Positions 1 through 9,718 of a stretch of DNA of 10,180 nt are shown here, in pieces. Source of the DNA: a virus (lineage: Duplodnaviria > Heunggongvirae > Uroviricota > Caudoviricetes); IMG/VR virus record IMGVR_UViG_3300011952_000009; one strand, 5' to 3'. The notes below the pieces were generated by a model. The model was not told where the DNA came from. It saw only the letters and a program-made list of their open reading frames with translations, and did not search any database. A program made the position numbers and the translations under genes. How positions within the stretch are numbered: position 1 is the first letter of the stretch; each line of letters opens with the position of its first letter.

Positions 1-1806
1 ATCCATATAAACATCTGCCGCAAATCCCAGATGAGATAGTGCTTTGACGGTGGCATCAGTAAGAGACTTTTTGGAGGCCTCTTTTTCCATTACCAGTGCC
101 CCTTTGTTATTTTTTGATATGTAATCCGTGTGGCCATATGACGGAATAAATCCTTTCACTCCGTTCCAGATGTACCAGAGATCTATCCGGATGGTGTGTA
201 CTGACAGGCAGAACAGGGAACCGTCAGCATCCCTGACAGGTTTTTGTCCAATAATTTTCCCTGTCTGATCCTGTATAGGTTCAAGTAATGGCACACCGCG
301 ATCCACTCGCTCCTCCTTGATNNNNNNNNNNGCACCGTAATCACTATGTGTGACATACGCAGGATCGGTCCGCTGAACGCGATTCCAGATAGCCAAATTT
401 GCTTTTCTCTGGTCATCATTCATTGCTGACAGATAATGCTCCATGCGAATTGATGCAGTTTTTTCCTCGGCATGGGGCGGCTCAACCAGCGCGTCAACGT
501 TCTGCACCAGATCCTTTACCTGCTCGCTAAGTTTTTCTTGTGGAGGAGTCTCTTCTGCCGGGGTAATAGCTGCAGGTTCCCTCTGTGAGACGGCGTTATT
601 TTCAGGTACGTCATACACATGGCGAGGCGTGATAAACTGCTCACGCAACTGCTGCAAACTACGTTCTCCAGCATTTGCAGCTTCGCTTTTTTCACCCTGA
701 TTTGAGGGTGTTTCTGACATCATCCCATCAATTGAGAATCGCCCGCCGCCGTGGTTGGTGACTTTTACATCATCCTTTGGTGCTGCTTCCTTTGACTTCT
801 CTTCAACAGCATTTGCATCACGCTGCCCGTTAGCTTGCAGCCAGTTGTCGATGTGACTGCGCAGGGATTGCGGGAAGTGGTACGTGTCTTTTGCGGGGGC
901 GCTCTGAATAACACCGAATACTGATGCGCGGTCATAGGCAAGGATCTGATCCGTTGTGCGCAAGGCCATTGACCAGCGTTTAAAATCCTCCCGATCCTGG
1001 CTGATTATTTCGTCTGCCGCTTTCAGGGCGCTGGGGGAGATTTTTTCCGGGCCAACGGGTAACAGAGCGCAGGCAATTTCACGATCCAGTGTAGCGTGAG
1101 TCTGTTTGTAAGGACGTGCGGACGGTTTTACCTCCGGCAGCATTTCATCGCGTTTACCGGGATTCTCTACCCATTTTTTTATAAATTTGGAGATAGTCCA
1201 ACTGGTCGGGTTTTGTTCCTGGGTATCGCAACTTGCCAAAATTGCATGTACCAGATTATTCAATCCAGCAATATGCATGTACTCGATGGGCTTACACGCC
1301 ACCATGGCATCAAGAACGATGCGGTTAAACGCGTCAACCTCATCCTCACTGTCAGTATCACTGTTGTCGAGCATCTCCAGGTATTCACGCGTCTGCGCAA
1401 GCAATTCACTGTCGACTTCGTTGGCGTCGTGGCTGAACAGCAGAACGGCGGCGAATCGTTCACGAGCCGGCAGTTTCATCAGGTCGTTAACCTGTGCGAT
1501 ATCTGCTGAACCGCTATCTACAACGGGGGTGTTAACTACCCATTTTTCGCCATCAAAACTGTGTTCTGTGGCGAACGTCTCATCAAACTCACCAACGCCT
1601 GGGCGCGGTTGGCCCAGGGCATCTTCCCAGATTTTAGGTTTGAAATAGTTGTCGCCGTGGTCAGGGTAGGCTTCCCACAATTTGCCGATGATGATGTTCT
1701 CGGCAACTTTTTTGTTAGGGGCGTCGATGGCGATGGCCAGCGCCGGGATCGCGCCGTTTTTGAGCGCGCCTTTTTTCGCTTCTAACAAGCCGTTAAAAAT
1801 GGTCAT
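1..1806 (-). CDS. Large multi-domain early protein, partial (continues beyond window start). N-terminal ~330 aa unrecognised, then an acidic Pro/Glu/Ala-rich linker, then a C-terminal segment (window positions ~1-440) resembling ERF-family ssDNA-annealing proteins
   Basis: ATG at 1806-1804 preceded by GAGGAAAGACC. Minus frame checked triplet by triplet: no stop from 1806 to position 1, crossing the N-run 322-331. Absent from the ORF track, presumably because it has no stop in the window. Track ORFs 183..419, 443..700, 1096..1509, 1187..1648, 1260..1463 and 1561..1785 are other frames or antisense of this ORF. ERF resemblance is to P22 Erf recalled from memory (GVPLL and K-A-L-x-x-L-G-F motifs with ERF-like spacing). 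Confidence 0.6.
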   Translation of the reverse strand, partial: MTIFNGLLEAKKGALKNGAIPALAIAIDAPNKKVAENIIIGKLWEAYPDHGDNYFKPKIWEDALGQPRPGVGEFDETFATEHSFDGEKWVVNTPVVDSGSADIAQVNDLMKLPARERFAAVLLFSHDANEVDSELLAQTREYLEMLDNSDTDSEDEVDAFNRIVLDAMVACKPIEYMHIAGLNNLVHAILASCDTQEQNPTSWTISKFIKKWVENPGKRDEMLPEVKPSARPYKQTHATLDREIACALLPVGPEKISPSALKAADEIISQDREDFKRWSMALRTTDQILAYDRASVFGVIQSAPAKDTYHFPQSLRSHIDNWLQANGQRDANAVEEKSKEAAPKDDVKVTNHGGGRFSIDGMMSETPSNQGEKSEAANAGERSLQQLREQFITPRHVYDVPENNAVSQREPAAITPAEETPPQEKLSEQVKDLVQNVDALVEPPHAEEKTASIRMEHYLSAMNDDQRKANLAIWNRVQRTDPAYVTHSDYGXXXXIKEERVDRGVPLLEPIQDQTGKIIGQKPVRDADGSLFCLSVHTIRIDLWYIWNGVKGFIPSYGHTDYISKNNKGALVMEKEASKKSLTDATVKALSHLGFAADVYMD

Positions 1807-1836
1807 TGGTCTTTCCTCATTACAGGTCAGTGGTCT

Positions 1837-2157
1837 TTAGTAGGGGATTTCATCAGTATCTGGCGTGTATTCGATGCAAAGTAACTGCTGGATTTTGTCA
1901 TCGATAGCAGCAATACGCTGTTGGGCGTCGGCGGCTGTATTCTGTTTTTGCTCACGCAGCTGCTCAACCTGTAAACCGATGATGTCGATTGGCTGGGGCT
2001 GGTTGACGGTAATTTCAATTTCGCGGCTTTCCAGAAGGATGTACCTGTCTGGAAAATTTTTTGACATATCAACTGTCGCAATAAACAGCTTTTCATGGCT
2101 GAAAGTTGAAGTTGCATAATGAATAAAGAGTGTTACTGGGATGGTGCGCGCTTCCAT
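1837..2157 (-). CDS. Hypothetical 106-aa early protein with an acidic, coiled-coil-like C-terminus
   Basis: ATG at 2157 with AAGGAG about 6 nt upstream; stop 30 nt before the next gene's start in the same operon; protein-like composition. Function not recognised. Confidence 0.6.
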   Translation of the reverse strand: MEARTIPVTLFIHYATSTFSHEKLFIATVDMSKNFPDRYILLESREIEITVNQPQPIDIIGLQVEQLREQKQNTAADAQQRIAAIDDKIQQLLCIEYTPDTDEIPY

Positions 2158-2241
2158 AGCGACTCCTTGGTGATGTATACTCAGAACCGATCAGCGAATA
2201 TTGATCAGCTTCCATAGCGTCAGTGTCGTTGGTCTTTCCTC

Positions 2242-2265
2242 ATCACAAGTTTGGTCACTTGTGAT
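2242..2265. other. Perfect 9-bp inverted repeat ATCACAAGT / ACTTGTGAT with 6-nt spacer TTGGTC (RNA hairpin or protein-binding palindrome)
   Basis: Read directly from sequence; lies in the leader about 85 nt upstream of the 106-aa gene start on the minus strand; no U-tract follows on either strand. Confidence 0.45.
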
Positions 2266-2386
2266 AAATCCGAATGGTTTGGTCGCCGTTCGGGGTAACT
2301 GGCCCGCCTTGTGCGGGTCTTTTGCTATCTAAAGGGTGCCGGTTACGTTTCCGGCGTCGTCATGTTTCCATCACGACCGTACAGGG

Positions 2387-2461
2387 CTGGTCTTTCCTGT
2401 TTTGAGCTGGTCAGGCTCATGGTCAACGCTGGTCAGGCGTGGTACTTCCTCCGGTCTTTCC
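2387..2461. repeat. Periodic array of four GACC-core repeats at ~20-22 bp spacing (plus strand GGTCTTTCC, GGTCAGGC, GGTCAGGC, GGTCTTTCC)
   Basis: Repeat starts at 2389, 2409, 2431 and 2453. Minus-strand readings (GGAAAGACC, GCCTGACCAGC) match the motifs found at three gene starts elsewhere in the window. Confidence 0.5.
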
Positions 2462-2531
2462 CTGGTTTCACGCTGCGGGTTTGGCCTCTCCTGTTGGGGA
2501 CTCAGGCACAGCGATAAAACCTGGCTGTGTG

Positions 2532-2559
2532 AAAAAATGGCCCATCGTGCGGACTGGGC
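2532..2559 (-). terminator. Weak terminator-like hairpin (GCCCA, 10-nt loop, TGGGC) followed by a U6 tract on the minus strand
   Basis: Stem at 2540-2559 and T-run at 2532-2537 read on the minus strand. The large loop and an enclosing 7-bp stem (GCTGTGT/ACACAGC) make this uncertain. Confidence 0.25.
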
Positions 2560-2583
2560 AAAGACTAAACACAGCAAATTGAT

Positions 2584-2608
2584 GATGGGCGCCCGGAATC
2601 GAACCGGG
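2584..2608 (-). ncRNA. tRNA-like 3' half: T-arm CCCGG-TTCGATT-CCGGG plus a 7-nt acceptor-like strand; not a canonical tRNA
   Basis: Minus strand reads ACCCGGTTCGATTCCGGGCGCCCATCATC. A perfect 5-bp stem with 7-nt T-loop consensus is present, but no CCA in register and no D-arm, anticodon arm or clean 7-bp acceptor partner was found upstream. Confidence 0.3.
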
Positions 2609-3005
2609 TAACGGGCAGGGAGTTCCCGTTAAACACCTGTTCACCACAACCGGGAGCGCACTCCGCCATTTCAAAATTTAACGACAAAGCTCAAAGTTGA
2701 GTCGATGAAGTGCGCTCTCGTGTTGTAGCCAGGACTCTTCCCTGGTGGTCACACCGTATCGCCTTGATGGTGAATCAATCGCTCATACCTGGCTGTGGCT
2801 TGCACATTCCGGCTACCTGCTATGGAGACAACGCGTTAAGGCTCCGCTTCCATCCAGACCGCTTCGACACATGTGCCATATGCCGGTGAAGTCTTTCCCT
2901 CTGTCACCGTGTTGGCGCCGACGCGCAAAATTTGGTGCCGTCTTTCCGGCTGTCAGAACTTGTTTCTGAACAACTGCCGCTGGGTAAGCGTTGTTGATGA
3001 AAGTG

Positions 3006-3034
3006 ACTTTACAATTTGTATTTGTAATGGTCAA
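3006..3034 (-). promoter_or_regulatory. pL-like leftward promoter (-35 TTGACC, 17-bp spacer, -10 TAAAGT on minus strand) overlapping 19-bp palindromic operator TTACAATTTGTATTTGTAA (3009-3027)
   Basis: Hexamers read on the minus strand at plus 3029-3034 and 3006-3011. Operator half-sites TTACAA and TTGTAA are exact reverse complements with a 7-bp spacer. Confidence 0.5.
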
Positions 3035-3118
3035 TGTGTTTTTAAAAAATAATTTGTAGTGAGGGACAAAAAAATATTCACTGTGTAAAGGTGTTTTTGT
3101 GTTAGGGGAAAGTTGCAT

Positions 3119-3134
3119 GCCAGCAGCGGCTGGC
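3119..3134. other. GC-rich hairpin GCCAGC-AGCG-GCTGGC, 19 nt downstream of the repressor stop
   Basis: Perfect 6-bp stem with tetraloop; no adjacent U-tract, so a terminator role is uncertain. Confidence 0.35.
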
Positions 3135-3152
3135 CTGGAAATTTGAACTGAA

Positions 3153-3566
3153 CTATTTTGTCTGGTTTTTGGCTTCAAGTAGTTCTTTTAGCAGTAGATC
3201 GAAGTGCTCTCTTTTTTCTTTTAGCTCATTGATTAGTTTGTTTTTTTCGCTCTCAGGCAGTCCTCTGAATAGTTGCAGTAGAGCCTGTTCTTGCGGGGTT
3301 AGTTCTTGATTGTAATTACCGGGGTGTAGCGTGGATTCATCCAAATATTCTCCTTCATTCATGAAGAAAAAATGAACAGGGTATCCGGTCACTTTTGCTA
3401 GCTTGTCTAATTTATCTTTTCTTGGAGTTACCCCATTACACCATGCCTGAACTGATTGAGCTGTAACCCCAATATGGCGAGCTAACTCAGATTGAGACCA
3501 GCCTAAGTCTTTTAGAATCCGTTGTAGTCGGCTAGCAAAAGCCATGTTTTTCGTTTTTGTGTTCAT
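3153..3566 (-). CDS. Prophage repressor, DicA-like (N-terminal HTH, C-terminal dimerisation region, no S24 peptidase domain)
   Basis: HTH segment LGWSQSELARHIGVTAQSVQAWCNG. C-terminal LTPQEQALLQLFRGLPESEKNKLINELKEKREHFDLLLKELLEAK resembles the DicA C-terminus as recalled. Divergent from a Cro-like gene and flanked by palindromic operators. Track start 3581 is a TTG; ATG at 3566 (or 3545) is more likely. Confidence 0.85.
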   Translation of the reverse strand: MNTKTKNMAFASRLQRILKDLGWSQSELARHIGVTAQSVQAWCNGVTPRKDKLDKLAKVTGYPVHFFFMNEGEYLDESTLHPGNYNQELTPQEQALLQLFRGLPESEKNKLINELKEKREHFDLLLKELLEAKNQTK

Positions 3567-3585
3567 ACCGTAAGGATACAAGGTT

Positions 3586-3619
3586 TAATTGTAGGGAGCA
3601 TTGCAAATATAATTTGTAA
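3586..3619. promoter_or_regulatory. OR-like operator/promoter region: TTGTAG(3589-3594), TTGCAA(3601-3606), TTGTAA(3614-3619); perfect TATAAT at 3607-3612 on plus strand
   Basis: Palindrome TTGCAAATATAATTTGTAA at 3601-3619 has the same TTRCAA-N7-TTGTAA architecture as the left operator. Sits between the divergent repressor and cro-like genes and is truncated by the N-run 3629-3638. Confidence 0.5.
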
Positions 3620-3659
3620 TTACAGTTANNNNNNNNNNCAAGACAAACTTCTTTCAGTA

Positions 3660-3854
3660 ATGAGACAATCCGAGTTAGGTCGGCGATTAGGGAAAAAACC
3701 ACAAACTGTGAGCCTCTGGTTCAAAGGACGGGTTCCCGGTGAAGAGGTTTTGCGCACATCTGAAGCTCTTGAATGGCGCGTGACCCCTCATGATCTTAGA
3801 CCGGATCTTTACCCAAACCCAGATGACAGCTTGCCTAAAACGGAAGCAGCTTAA
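3660..3854 (+). CDS. Cro/YdaS-like small HTH regulator; true 5' end probably lies in or before the N-gap 3629-3638
   Basis: Track ORF; HTH-like GRRLGKKPQTVSLWFKGRVP. Frame is open back to the gap edge at 3639 and there is no SD before ATG 3660, so the N-terminus is probably missing. Confidence 0.65.
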   Translation: MRQSELGRRLGKKPQTVSLWFKGRVPGEEVLRTSEALEWRVTPHDLRPDLYPNPDDSLPKTEAA

Positions 3855-4389: not shown

Positions 4390-4428
4390 GCGCCTGACCA
4401 GCGTTTAACTTATACCGAGGAAAGACCG

Positions 4429-4653
4429 ATGTTAAGACATATTGACCGCATTACCTGGCGTAACGGCTGGCACCTGAATGGGCGCCCGGCACATGTTGCA
4501 GAGATCCAACCTATTTTTGATGGGCGTATGGCTGCCGCGCTTTCGGTGTGGGAGCAGTATGAATCCAGGAAGGTCGAGTTGCGCGACAAAGGGCTGAGCA
4601 ATGCGGACTATGAAGCCGGTTGTCGTCAGATAGCCGAAGCTCTGGAGATCTGA
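4429..4653 (+). CDS. Hypothetical 74-aa protein
   Basis: ATG 4429 preceded by ACCGAGGAAAGACC; its stop TGA 4651-4653 sits 2 nt before the next gene's ATG. Confidence 0.6.
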   Translation: MLRHIDRITWRNGWHLNGRPAHVAEIQPIFDGRMAAALSVWEQYESRKVELRDKGLSNADYEAGCRQIAEALEI

Positions 4654-4655
4654 GT

Positions 4656-5690
4656 ATGAGTCGTTTGCTGATTAACGAAAACCCCCTTCAGGTCCTGCCC
4701 ACGTTGGCATGCACTATAGGGTTGAATGAAGCCATCGTTCTACAGCAAATCCACTACTGGCTGAATTCATCTCAAAATTTCTTCGAAAATCGCCACTGGG
4801 TGTACAACAGTGTGACCGATTGGCAAGAACAATTCCCGTTCTGGAGCGAGTCGACAATAAAACGCGTGCTGGCCAATCTGGAAAAATTGAATGTGGTATT
4901 TACTGGGAACTTTAACAGTGATGCCTGGGATAAAACCAAGTGGTNNNNNNNNNNCCCAGTTATGTAAGATTGAAGAGACAACATTCCCTGTGGCCAATCG
5001 ATTAGGTCAAGTTGACCCAATCGAAGAGGTCAATGTGACCCAAGCATCAGGTCAAGTTGACCCATGCGCTAAGGTCAAAATGACCCAATCTCTTACAGAG
5101 AATACAACAGAGAGTACTACAGAGATAAAAGATCCCCCTTACCCCCAAAAGGGGGAGGGCGAGGAAATCATTCTCGCTGACGCTCAAAAAGCTCTGAACT
5201 ACTACAACGAGAAAGTCGGTACACGCTGCCGCGACGTTAAACCGTTTGTCATGCTGCTGACTGCCACCACCACCCGCGCTGGTTACAGCGTGGCTGAGAT
5301 TCAGTTAGTAATTCGTTGGGTTATTGCGACATGGCGCCGTCGTAGCGGAAGCGTGCCGAAACCTGCGAACATTTGCCGCGTAAACCGGTTTGACGGATAT
5401 CTGGCTGACGCTGAGGCGTGGGCCACTGCTGAGGCTGCCGTTGACCCTGCTGAAGTTGTGAAGGGCTACAACGAGATTCTGGGCGACCTGACCGCCGTCG
5501 GGCAATCCTGCGCCTGCTGGCACATATGCGCACGCAAACTCTTGGCGCATTTATCGGCTACTTCGAAAAATTCCGCGATAACGCCCCAGACTTCTATTTC
5601 GGCGGCGAATATCGCACCGGCTGGCGGGCAGGGTTTGATTACCTGATGAAGCCAGAAACACTGCGTAAAACCAGGGAAGGGGCATTATGA
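4656..5690 (+). CDS. Replication initiation protein, lambda O-like / replisome organiser, with the origin inside the gene; reading frame changes at the N-gap 4945-4954 and again near 5455-5505
   Basis: ATG 4656 with GGAG 8 nt upstream. N-terminal HTH-like segment (track 4620..4967), middle part in track ORF 4891..5646. The last ~60 codons are more protein-like in another frame (AILRLLAHMRTQTLGAFIGYFEKFRDNAPDFYFGGEYRTGWRAGFDYLMKPETLRKTREGAL) ending TGA 5688-5690, which overlaps the helicase ATG 5687 (ATGA). Confidence 0.7.
5004..5087. repeat. Replication origin iterons: four copies of AGGTCAANNTGACCCA at 22-23 bp spacing, followed by an A-rich tract (5088-5140)
   Basis: Copies at 5004-5019, 5027-5042, 5049-5064 and 5072-5087; each has internal dyad symmetry (GGTCA/TGACC); located inside the O-like gene as in ori-lambda. 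Confidence 0.75.
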
Positions 5691-7035
5691 ATCCAGAAGA
5701 ACTGGAAGCGATCGTTCTCGCTGGTCTGATTAACGGTGGTGCGACGCCTGACGCGTTTGATGTGATTGCCACTACTCCGGAGGAAGCCTTCAGCATCGTG
5801 TTTCACCGTCGCGCTTTCAGCGAAATCAAAAAGCAGGCACTGGCGAACGGCATGATCGACATGTTGTTTATCAGCGAAGCGCTGGGCGGTTCCAGCCTTG
5901 CGGATCTGTCTCAAATATCCCGGATCCCGGCAACGGTACCGAATCTGAAAGGCTATGCCGGGAAAATGGTGCGGGCATGGCGGAGCCGCAAAATGGCGGC
6001 ATTGTTGCAATCTGGCGCGGATGGTATCCGTAACGCTGTAAACCAGAGTCAGCGTGATGAGGTTATTGAATCTCATGTTGCTCAGGTGCTGGATATGAGC
6101 GCCGCTACCGGCACAGTCCAGCCGGTACACATCAAAGAGCTGTTACCGCTCTACATTGACACCGTTGATAAACGGATGTCTGGTGACGCGCAGGAAATGA
6201 TGCTGAAAACCGGAGTCGAGGATCTGGATGTCGCCCTGGGCGGTATCAACATGACCGACCTTGTTGTGGTTGCCGGTCGTCCAGGCATGGGGAAAACGGA
6301 ATTTACCCTGAAGATTATCGATGGCGTTACCGCAGATGGCGGCGGCGCACTGTTTTTCAGCATGGAAATGGGCGCTCAGCAGATTGTTGAACGTACCGTT
6401 GCCGGGGCTGGGAATATGTCCACGTCGCGTCTGCGTAATCCAAAAGAAATGGACGATGAGGATTTGACCAGATTAACCGCCGCGCTTGCAATCATGCAGG
6501 ATCGCGATATCTGGATTGTTGATGCCACTGATTTGACGATTGAGCAGATCCGCGCCATTGCAGAGACTCATAAACGCCGTTATCNNNNNNNNNNGCCGAG
6601 CGCCACGATCTCGCTGTCGGGCATATCTCCCGCAACATGAAGACTATGGCCATGCGTCTGCATACCCCTGTTTTTGCTCTTAGCCAGCTTTCCCGCCAGG
6701 TGGATTCTCGACCTGCTGGCCAGCGTCGCCCGGTGATGTCGGACCTGCGCGATTCCGGCAGTGTTGAGCAGGACGCTGACAGCATTTTGTTTTTGTACCG
6801 CGCTGAAGTTTACACACCTGATTCACCTGCAAAGGGTATCGCCGAGGTGATTATCGGTAAAAACCGTTCTGGCGGGGCAGGTGAAATTATTTATCAGGAA
6901 TTCCGGAATGGGCATTTCCTGCCAATTGATCAACACGTAGCACGCGAAAAATTACGCATCCAGAAGGAGGCAGAGCAACCGAGAAAACGTGAAAAACGGT
7001 ATTCAAACAAAAACTTTAATACGGACCCATTTTAA
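5687..7035 (+). CDS. Replicative DNA helicase, DnaB family (phage P22 gp12-like), interrupted by N-gap 6585-6594
   Basis: Walker A GRPGMGKT; after the gap, ALSQLSRQ, SDLRDSGSVEQDADSILFLYR and IGKNRSG motifs. Track ORFs 5687..6640 and 6637..7035 are two parts of one gene; the frame difference across the gap implies the gap length is unknown. Confidence 0.9.
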
Positions 7036-7073
7036 CCACGCATGACCAGCGTGAAATAACCGAGGAAAGACCA

Positions 7074-7485: not shown

Positions 7486-7722
7486 ATGACCGGGCAATCA
7501 GATTACCTGCCGCCCGGCTTACCACACAACCGCGCCAAATGGCCCCAGGAATACCAGCTTAAAGAGCACTACGACATGCGAGCGGCGGCGCTGATCCGCC
7601 AACTCTTTGAGAAACGTATTCCGAGGGGAAGCGTGATTGAGCAAATCGGAATGACGCCGGATACATACCGGGAATTTTTCAGAGAGCGTCTGAACTACTG
7701 GAGAGGGGTGATGGAACAATGA
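7486..7722 (+). CDS. Hypothetical 78-aa protein
   Basis: ATG 1 nt after the upstream stop; track ORF. Confidence 0.6.
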   Translation: MTGQSDYLPPGLPHNRAKWPQEYQLKEHYDMRAAALIRQLFEKRIPRGSVIEQIGMTPDTYREFFRERLNYWRGVMEQ

Positions 7723-8030: not shown

Positions 8031-8248
8031 AAGAACTTTTTCTGGCATTTGTGCCCCGGTTTATTAATGACCAGATCGCACTGACTGATAATGGTGAACA
8101 ATATGAAATTGCCTGCAGCATGGTGGATGTGAATCCTGGCGAACGGTATGACGCGATGTGNNNNNNNNNNTTTACCTGGCTGGGTTGGGCTATTCCGTGT
8201 GGAGAACCAACCAATATTCGCCCATTTGAGAGCAGGGAGGCTGTATGA
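8027..8248 (+). CDS. Hypothetical small protein (contains N-gap 8161-8170)
   Basis: ATGA overlap with the upstream gene; same frame open on both sides of the gap. Confidence 0.5.
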   Translation: MKELFLAFVPRFINDQIALTDNGEQYEIACSMVDVNPGERYDAMXXXXFTWLGWAIPCGEPTNIRPFESREAV

Positions 8249-8658: not shown

Positions 8659-8687
8659 TTGACTTAGAAAAAGCCCGGGGCTATAGT
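8659..8687 (+). promoter_or_regulatory. Strong sigma70 promoter: -35 TTGACT (8659-8664), 17-bp spacer, -10 TATAGT (8682-8687)
   Basis: Read directly; both hexamers 5/6 to consensus with optimal spacing; predicted start site about 8694-8696. Confidence 0.55.
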
Positions 8688-8747
8688 TTCCGCGCAGCCG
8701 CAAAATCGGTTGCCGGGATTGGCGTCCCGGATATCTAAGTGACGCAT

Positions 8748-8768
8748 AGCCGCGTTAGCGGTTTTTTT
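8748..8768 (+). terminator. Rho-independent terminator: stem CCGC/GCGG (extendable to 6 bp), loop GTTA, then T7
   Basis: Stem 8750-8753 / 8758-8761, T-run 8762-8768; about 60-75 nt downstream of the predicted start site. A second hairpin CCGGGA-TTGGCG-TCCCGG lies at 8713-8730. Confidence 0.55.
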
Positions 8769-8929
8769 ATGTGTTAGGCACGGCCACATTCGCATTATGG
8801 TGGGCTGTGTGGGGGCTTCTGCGGAAGCGCCGGGTTCACTTAGCCGGTTACGCCAACCCTGCACAGTTCACCACCAGATGATTGGCGTCGCTGGTGGTGA
8901 TGAAAAAAACACTAAGTGAGGCCACTGCG

Positions 8930-9718
8930 ATGACAATCCAAATATCTGCGGAATCCCTTTCTCCGCTACATCATAACCAACTTCCCGTCATCACTACTGA
9001 ATTGCTTGCCAGTTTGTATGGCACGGAAGTAAATGGTATCCAGCAAAACTTCAAGCGCAACATCGCCAGATTTGTCGTAGGAAAGCATTTTTTTAAGCTG
9101 GAAGGTAATGAATTACGCGACTTCAAAAACAGACTGACAGATAGTCAGTCAGTTGCTAAACATACCCGATCCCTCATTCTCTGGACAGAACGCGGCGCAG
9201 CTCGCCATGCCAAAATGCTGGAAACAGAACAGGCCTGGGAAGTTTTCGAAAAGCTGGAAGATTGTTATTTTAGCCAGCGTCCAGAGAGGCGGAGTACAAC
9301 TACCGATGACCGTACTCCCTTACGTGATGCCGTTAATATGCTGGTCGGTAAGAAAGGCATGATGTATCCCGATGCCTACACCATGATTCATCAACGCTTC
9401 GCCGTCTCTCACATAGAACAACTGTCACAGACGCAAATGTTAGAGGCGATTGAATACATCCACTGCCTGCTACTCGATGAAAATCAGCCAACCATTCCAG
9501 ATTTTTCTTTTATCACCACTATCAAAAATGGAAAAGTGACCAGGATGCGCCATGTTGCCAAAGGCGAACATCTGATGACGTTTGACGCTTTCAAAGAGAT
9601 CGCTGAGCGGGCAGGGTATCTGGTGATCCACAGCGACAACCTGCGAAGTATGACACTGGATAAATTGATGGTAATGGGGAAAAAGTCTGCTGTATCTGTT
9701 GCTGATTCAGCATTTTGA
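8930..9718 (+). CDS. ORF6N-domain protein (phage antirepressor-like) with an unrecognised C-terminal domain
   Basis: N-terminal LASLYGTEVNGIQQNFKRNIARFVVGKHFFKLEGNELRDF...LILWTERGAARHAKMLETEQAWEVFEKLEDCYF fits the ORF6N pattern as recalled. GAGG 8 nt before ATG 8930; track start 8882 is a TTG and ATG 8900 is an alternative. Confidence 0.75.
   Translation: MTIQISAESLSPLHHNQLPVITTELLASLYGTEVNGIQQNFKRNIARFVVGKHFFKLEGNELRDFKNRLTDSQSVAKHTRSLILWTERGAARHAKMLETEQAWEVFEKLEDCYFSQRPERRSTTTDDRTPLRDAVNMLVGKKGMMYPDAYTMIHQRFAVSHIEQLSQTQMLEAIEYIHCLLLDENQPTIPDFSFITTIKNGKVTRMRHVAKGEHLMTFDAFKEIAERAGYLVIHSDNLRSMTLDKLMVMGKKSAVSVADSAF

Follow-up and report, generated by a model that had tools for sequence, protein, structure and literature searches.

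The single-strand annealing protein (SSAP) Erf of the temperate phage P22 is a stand-alone protein of 205 residues that occurs together with Abc1/Abc2 and Arf, without a dedicated phage exonuclease, and depends on helper proteins that act on RecBCD of the host. Another group of annealing proteins, the Rad52/Rad22/Sak family (PF04098), comprises human RAD52 (N-terminal domain), yeast Mgm101, and Sak of the lactococcal phage ul36 and the staphylococcal phage 80alpha; ERF and Rad52 form one superfamily (PMC2896510). In the Rac prophage, RecE (exonuclease VIII) ends in a PD-(D/E)XK 5′-3′ exonuclease domain and is followed by the separate SSAP RecT. The RecE nuclease corresponds to the C-terminal domain, residues 564-866, which genetically replaces the entire protein on its own (PMC11611040). 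The N-terminal part has no assigned function, and full-length RecE improves linear-linear recombination (PMC11611040; bioRxiv 10.1101/2022.01.13.476211); moreover, a Gam-like anti-RecBCD function within recE was suggested earlier (bioRxiv 10.1101/2022.01.13.476211). Here, we describe a gene on the minus strand of a 10,180-nucleotide stretch of Caudoviricetes DNA (IMG/VR virus record IMGVR_UViG_3300011952_000009, referred to as the window), which appears to join a RecE-type N-terminal module (N-module) to a Rad52/Sak-type annealing domain.

Based on homology searches and structural modelling, we consider it very probable that this prophage protein of approximately 737 residues is an annealing recombinase that has been wrongly named 'exonuclease'. 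It would consist of a RecE-type N-module of approximately 334 residues without a nuclease fold, a disordered acidic linker of approximately 120 residues, and a Rad52/Sak-type single-strand annealing domain that is followed by a three-helix C-terminal tail. As the names 'exonuclease family protein' and 'putative exonuclease' stem from homology of the N-terminal part only, they are misleading. Both parts are of known kinds, and their combination as well as the swappable RecE N-terminus are undescribed in the searchable literature: searches addressing the architecture, PF27430, the role of the RecE N-terminus, Gp157, and gp07 of phage ZF40 yielded no description of the fusion, the founding SSAP classification (Iyer et al. 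2002) lying outside their reach.

Translation of the minus strand from the ATG at 1806-1804 gives 602 codons without a stop before the frame exits the window at position 1, in line with a preliminary description of the window, which had noted an open minus frame of more than 600 codons. Because the frame runs off the window end, it was absent from the list of open reading frames (ORFs). The feature at 1-1806 (minus strand) holds the first 602 codons, as read, of a gene of approximately 737 codons, 28 of which are hidden under a run of N and 110 of which lie past the window edge. Directly before the start codon stands GAGGAAAGACC (1808-1818, minus strand), a motif containing a Shine-Dalgarno sequence 1 nucleotide upstream of ATG 1806. 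The sequence landmarks named in the preliminary description were likewise located, with MNDDQRK starting at 423, GVPLL at 283-297, and KKSLTD...KALSHLGFAADVY at 7-75. A separate SSAP starting at the internal ATG 444 or 423 was considered; the nearest GAGGA is located approximately 20 nucleotides upstream of ATG 444, too distant for a good Shine-Dalgarno sequence.

The long ORF is a genuine single gene within the early-left operon of a Rac/lambdoid-like prophage. Employing the first 2400 bases of the window as query, we observed copies with at least 95% identity in 455 of 5426 complete E. coli genomes (one at 90-95%), all of them chromosomal, and at least 80% of the query was covered in 448 of the 455 matching genomes. 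At the matching E. coli loci examined, RefSeq gives a single coding sequence (CDS) of 737 or 740 residues named either 'hypothetical protein' or 'exonuclease family protein'; PHROGs and the record of phage ZF40 likewise label the protein exonuclease, and these sources give no other kind of name. In the two E. coli genomes examined, the region represents a prophage at tRNA-Ser beside mtfA. The one CDS in complete genomes bears out the earlier proposal of a single gene with an N-terminal extension fused in frame to an annealing domain. Moreover, a stop and restart near 423-480, which had been put forward as the sign of two separate genes, was found in none of the relatives examined.

A megablast search of a phage collection gave no match. 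The fusion gene is present with synteny kept in the isolated phages ZF40 and BUCT708/709, and the fusion is maintained across genera at 28-57% protein identity. At least 563 IMG/VR contigs encode relatives, and in 77 of the best 80 of these loci the N-module and the annealing domain share one ORF of 549-881 residues. A survey of species representatives, with each species represented by one genome, gave 234 loci with relatives; of the 80 best, 18 have a fused and 62 a stand-alone gene, the latter mostly in Pseudomonas. The architecture had been called unusual, and correspondingly other proteobacteria, mostly Pseudomonas, encode the relatives of the C-terminal domain as separate proteins of approximately 240 residues. 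The 18 fused copies occur in Enterobacterales (Escherichia, Serratia, Yersinia, Xenorhabdus, Pectobacterium, Raoultella, and others) with Martelella alba as the sole exception (17 versus 1). The 12-kb contig of the latter (NZ_SZPQ01000070.1; locus L098) carries the full fusion gene, encoding 695 residues with 49% identity in the annealing domain; its presence on a contig attributed to an alphaproteobacterium possibly reflects contamination or horizontal transfer.

The window contains five runs of N, each of exactly 10 letters (322-331, 3629-3638, 4945-4954, 6585-6594, and 8161-8170). Comparison with a relative's sequence reveals that the run at 322-331 replaces 85 real bases, which agrees with a record span of 2475 for the 2400-base query, and since 85-10=75, the reading frame is kept. 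Other runs correspond to 15 and 53 real bases where measurable; the runs are therefore placeholders of fixed length. The preliminary description was correct in locating the run at 322-331 within the annealing part, except that the domain is not of the ERF family and that the run hides 85 bases. The 28 concealed codons, GLHSIRAQYILMRATEVLGMEGIGWGVE, include RATExFGPxGIGWG, the block with the strongest conservation in the family of the C-terminal domain. Elsewhere in the window, such runs can make ORFs look frameshifted or split, as for the replication initiator (4620-5646) and the DnaB-like helicase (5687-7035).

The first ~330 residues, for which no family had been recognised at the outset, show homology with RecE/exonuclease VIII in its N-terminal region. 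An N-module profile iterated over the collected proteins aligns with Rac RecE residues 48-361 (E 8.8e-36), while plain BLASTP aligned only residues 238-304 with RecE 262-332 (E 0.003), and a HMMER pass over 1.84 billion cluster representatives yielded 131 clusters at E≤0.001. The PHROG phrog_2489, labelled 'exonuclease', matches residues 1-485 (E 5.6e-245), further 'exonuclease' PHROGs match residues 229-332, and the NCBIfam exodeoxyribonuclease VIII model (PRK09709) aligns residues 231-332 with its positions 264-370 at E 2.6e-12, far under its equivalog cut-off. Precomputed assignments place PF27430 on close relatives and PF06630 on distant ones. The structure prediction that had been proposed for this part divides the N-module (residues 1-334; 805-1806, minus strand) into an alpha/beta subdomain (residues 1-92; 1531-1806, minus strand) and two helical subdomains (residues 112-222, 1141-1473, and residues 237-326, 829-1098, both on the minus strand). 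A nuclease fold was sought in this predicted model, and none was found.

The N-module is followed by an acidic low-complexity linker (residues 335-454; 445-804, minus strand), the matching stretch being of low confidence in the model of a close relative. The acidic Pro/Glu/Ala-rich stretch delineated earlier at residues 330-470 holds up in composition, with 19% acidic residues and 31% P+E+A. Within the linker we located the motif TNHGGGRFSIDGMMSE (residues 350-365; 712-759, minus strand), which relates to the pattern G[GN]G.FS[IV][DE].L[MILV] and here reads GGGRFSIDGMM. This motif was found in 5 of 19 annealing, 7 of 40 PD-(D/E)XK, and 3 of 11 DEDD proteins, and Rac RecE lacks it. It seems to be a short motif for protein binding.

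The C-terminal part, truncated by the window edge (residues 466-602; 1-411, minus strand), is predicted from sequence relationships and modelling to be a divergent annealing domain of the Rad52/Sak type, which shares a superfamily with ERF (PMC2896510) without being a member of the ERF family. With the full C-terminal 283 residues of a relative as query, a database search revealed 96 homologues, mostly of 210-290 residues. When scanned singly, 11 of 67 family members matched PF04098 (Rad52_Rad22) at E≤0.01, and two of ten relatives scanned individually passed the gathering threshold of 20.3 bits (P0022 with 26.4 and P0093 with 20.9 bits). In the helix motif KKSLTDATVKALSHLGFAADVY at 7-75, the residues K, K, T, K, G, and D do not vary. 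In addition, fused and stand-alone members alike show little or no variation in the GxGWG motif and in the basic and aromatic positions of the DNA-binding helix. The conserved helix KKSLTD..KAL..LGF presumably resembles the DNA-binding helix of RAD52.

An AlphaFold2 model of the relative P0001, calculated with the family alignment, has a mean predicted local distance difference test score of 87 (the block means being 89-98 for residue 81 onward) and shows the beta-beta-beta-alpha DNA-binding fold of Rad52. The closest globular PDB folds to the modelled annealing domain are RAD52, Mgm101, and Sak. Among the predicted viral structures in BFVD, the best matches are stand-alone proteins of 170-240 residues, and the named matches are, in order, 'DNA repair protein', Sak3, Rad52/59/22, RAD52-like recombinase, ERF (rank 19), Bet, and RecT.

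The relatives of the N-module combine the same module with PD-(D/E)XK, DEDD 3′-5′ exonuclease, RecT, or Rad52-like C-termini. Approximately 20 of the long representatives end in a Rad52-like domain; the remaining ones match PF06630 (27), which represents the N-terminal ~200 residues of RecE, PF12684 PDDEXK (10), the Rv2179c-like DEDD exonuclease PF16473 (10), RNase_T (2), and RecT (1). Clustering of the C-termini from the end of the N-module merged all proteins via common linker motifs, whereas clustering of the last 190 residues separated three classes with 40 PD-(D/E)XK, 16 Rad52-like, and 11 DEDD members. The nearest neighbours of the N-modules mostly belong to the same class, with 8 of 55 crossing classes. 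The relatives P0232 (nuclease type) and P0240 (annealing type) share 89% identity over the first 494 residues and are unrelated thereafter, P0232 having at its end the distal half of a PD-(D/E)XK domain (E 2e-49 against the profile). This abrupt divergence points to a cassette exchange that took place recently and had its breakpoint in the linker. Moreover, the N-module of P0232 is 35% identical to residues 6-366 of Rac RecE (BLASTP), a direct link between RecE and the proteins of the annealing type. The occurrence of the N-module before four DNA-processing domains, together with at least one very recent cassette swap, argues for a self-contained functional unit.

The order of genes is integrase, DUF4224, a 60-residue gene, a Gp157-family gene, the fusion gene, a 106-residue gene, an ORF-poor stretch of approximately 1 kb, a helix-turn-helix repressor, YdaS-like and YdaT-like genes, and replication genes. 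Among the neighbours of the fusion at the loci examined, no nuclease gene was found between integrase and repressor; instead of a 5′-3′ exonuclease gene of the YqaJ/lambda Exo or RecE type, the 106-residue gene and the Gp157 gene adjoin it. The 106-residue gene (phrog_2479; 1837-2157, minus strand) has a homologue next to the fusion in 42 of the 80 viral loci; we regard it as context, not as a proven part of the system. The downstream partner matches PF05565 Sipho_Gp157 (E 2.4e-28), and its gene begins at the fusion gene's stop codon in 79 of the 80 viral loci, most often with a 4-base overlap. At the related locus L001 it is located at 5102-5671 (minus strand), just outside the window, and matches phrog_253 'Mu Gam-like end protection' (E 9.8e-46).

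In the species-representative loci, Gp157 is encoded after the fused gene in 17 of 18 cases and after the stand-alone gene in 46 of 62, and YqaJ is encoded nearby in 6. We inspected six stand-alone homologues: a YqaJ-type (lambda-Exo-like) exonuclease gene is adjacent in four, two of which also have a gene for a single-stranded DNA-binding protein (SSB), another shows the order SSAP-Gp157-SSB, and one resides in a conjugation-like context. Phage annealing proteins are classically encoded in such a neighbourhood. The SSAP-Gp157 pair seems to be the older unit, with the N-module apparently added to it in enterobacterial phages.

Compared with the systems described above, the fusion shares with the Rad52/Sak family the Pfam matches of its relatives and the linkage of stand-alone members to exonuclease and SSB genes. 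In contrast, the window protein is very divergent, its annealing domain is located C-terminally behind 450 residues of RecE-type module and linker, and its partner gene is of the Gp157 family and does not encode an exonuclease. With Rac RecE/RecT it has in common the niche, an early-left operon between repressor and integrase in a prophage of the YdaS/YdaT type, as well as the homologous N-terminal ~330 residues and the long linker that leads to a C-terminal DNA-processing domain. However, the fusion lacks a nuclease and carries an SSAP in its place, and this SSAP belongs to the Rad52-like and not to the RecT family. Like P22 Erf, it is a temperate-phage SSAP of the Rad52-like superfamily without a dedicated phage exonuclease, but Erf stands alone and belongs to another family, and no Abc or Arf homologues were identified at the fusion locus. 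The N-module-DEDD proteins of E. coli phages and prophages such as Tritos, mEp460, and CP-933P ('exodeoxyribonuclease VIII') share the N-module (residues 42-327 at 24-26% identity by tblastn) and the place beside the integrase, yet they end in a 3′-5′ DEDD exonuclease (PF16473) in place of an annealing domain, and Tritos has no adjacent Gp157 gene.

Several observations weigh against an annealing recombinase. Pfam scans of the window ORF, a full-length relative, and the isolated C-terminal domain gave no useful match (a DUF5362 hit at E 0.22 in the direct scan was rejected as spurious), and P0001, which is 71% identical to the window protein, scores 15.9 bits on PF04098 and hence remains under the threshold. 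As the window protein has no Pfam match, the domain assignment rests on transitive homology and the predicted fold. Likewise, the family profile matched no chain among the PDB sequences, and phmmer found nothing relevant. The modelled protein is the relative and not the window sequence, since the window copy is devoid of 28 residues. Furthermore, the 'Mu Gam-like end protection' label of the Gp157 partner was not reproduced, as the Gp157 profile gave no signal against Mu Gam with hhalign, although profile versus single sequence is a weak test; Ku/Gam-like end binding by Gp157 proteins, if present, would bear on the mechanism. Finally, it is a guess, if our leading one, that the N-module may direct the fusion to the ends of DNA or to a host factor, for example RecBCD; it was prompted by the suggested Gam-like function of recE and by the precedent of P22 Erf and Abc.

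The preliminary description had assigned the C-terminal part to the ERF family (PF04404). Here, the function, annealing, appears to be right and the family wrong, which is explained by the common superfamily of ERF and Rad52 (PMC2896510). It had also named the lack of an ERF hit as a result contrary to its proposal, and formally this is what we obtained: at E≤1, PF04404 matched neither the window ORF nor the full-length protein nor any of ten relatives, and at E≤0.01 it matched none of the 67 family members, 11 of which match PF04098. An ERF domain of the P22 type with an unrelated N-terminal extension would predict the identical activity, and two BFVD models labelled 'Essential recombination function protein' were retrieved (E 1.5e-4, rank 19, and 1.1e-2). 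However, these labels rank below Sak3 and Rad52, the leading PDB folds are those of the Rad52/Sak family, and hhalign of the family profile with P22 Erf gave a probability of 0.2%, again in a weak profile-versus-single-sequence test. Moreover, the annealing domain begins at approximately residue 466 of 737, unlike the N-terminal placement in stand-alone ERF proteins of approximately 200 residues. We therefore regard membership in the ERF family as decidedly unlikely. The labels in RefSeq, PHROGs, and the ZF40 record, which would make it a nuclease of the RecE/exonuclease VIII type, are highly unlikely to be right. The homology to RecE behind these names covers residues 48-361, whereas the nuclease resides in 564-866 (PMC11611040); the PD-(D/E)XK domain is replaced by a Rad52-like domain, no such match exists at the C-terminus, and the N-module model contains no nuclease fold.

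The run of N inside the frame, one of five in the window, could indicate that two genes were joined by a sequencing or assembly error. Gap-free complete genomes nevertheless contain one uninterrupted CDS, the hidden 85 nucleotides keep the frame, and the fusion is conserved across genera at 28-57% protein identity, so that the probability of an artefact is negligible. A different objection concerns function. The Rad52-like domain might have lost annealing and serve as an oligomerisation scaffold, with the fusion acting via N-module and linker for example as an inhibitor or decoy of host RecBCD or of a defence sensor. This would fit the RecE N-terminus, which lacks an assigned function and for which a Gam-like anti-RecBCD role has been suggested (bioRxiv 10.1101/2022.01.13.476211), the operon without an exonuclease partner, and the sensing of SSAPs by a bacterial Avs family (PMC13581612). 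Yet the GxGWG motif and the basic and aromatic positions of the DNA-binding helix hardly vary, if at all, between fused and stand-alone members, and the latter reside in classical exonuclease/SSB modules; we consider a loss of annealing improbable.

If the protein is an annealing recombinase, its Rad52-like core would oligomerise, the invariant basic residues of the KK..TD..K helix would bind single-stranded DNA, and the core would anneal complementary strands and thereby serve as the RecA-independent recombinase of the phage. As the operon contains no dedicated exonuclease, the single-stranded DNA would presumably originate from host nucleases or replication. The protein may act together with the translationally coupled Gp157-family protein encoded directly downstream, and the N-module may represent a portable adaptor common with RecE-type exonucleases. 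More specifically, an autonomous N-module could be plugged before interchangeable DNA-end enzymes and deliver each of them to the same target, for example a double-stranded DNA end or host RecBCD, which would be blocked or hijacked. We put this forward as a tentative idea that is possible but on balance doubtful.

The motif preceding the fusion gene recurs in the window. With up to one mismatch, five copies of the 11-mer GAGGAAAGACC were found versus 0.14 expected: 1808-1818, 2231-2241, and 2389-2399 on the minus strand, and 4417-4427 and 7062-7072 on the plus strand. Three of them are located 1-2 nucleotides before the ATGs at 1806, 4429, and 7074, and two lie within the ORF-poor interval 2160-3150 with no convincing gene after them. 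The motif could be a shared translation-initiation cassette or a remnant of recombination joints. In this interval of approximately 1 kb between the 106-residue gene and the repressor, we found neither a convincing ORF nor an Rfam match. It varies in relatives, L001 having extra small genes and L002 lacking them, and it may hold early-left regulatory elements such as nutL or terminators, or constitute a hot spot for cargo genes.

At the other end of the window, c4-a1b1 (8681-8733), isrK (8694-8768), and C4 antisense RNA (8793-8878) scored above the Rfam gathering score, all on the plus strand, and these matches are followed by an anti-repressor ORF (phrog_4792; 8882-9718, plus strand). The region 8681-9718 is a c4-ant immunity cassette of the P1/P7 type inside a Rac/lambdoid-like prophage, and the same prophage also has a CI/Cro-type switch (3153-3854). 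In addition, an ORF of 78 residues (7486-7722, plus strand) matches phrog_1105 'DNA polymerase III theta subunit' (E 1.9e-29) and represents a HolE/theta-like prophage protein.

Approximately 8% of complete E. coli genomes carry the fusion gene, as do many prophages of Salmonella, Klebsiella, Serratia, Yersinia, and others; it is named 'hypothetical' or 'exonuclease' there and most likely encodes an annealing recombinase. This assignment changes how the recombination capacity of these prophages is read, and a divergent Rad52-type SSAP native to Enterobacterales joins the pool of candidates for recombineering. The large N-terminus of RecE has been without an assigned function for decades, and the natural chimeras allow the module to be probed. 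Should the N-module indeed be an adaptor, the fusion and Gp157 would constitute a previously unrecognised recombination system without an exonuclease, and the purpose of the 'dispensable' N-terminus of RecE would be explained.

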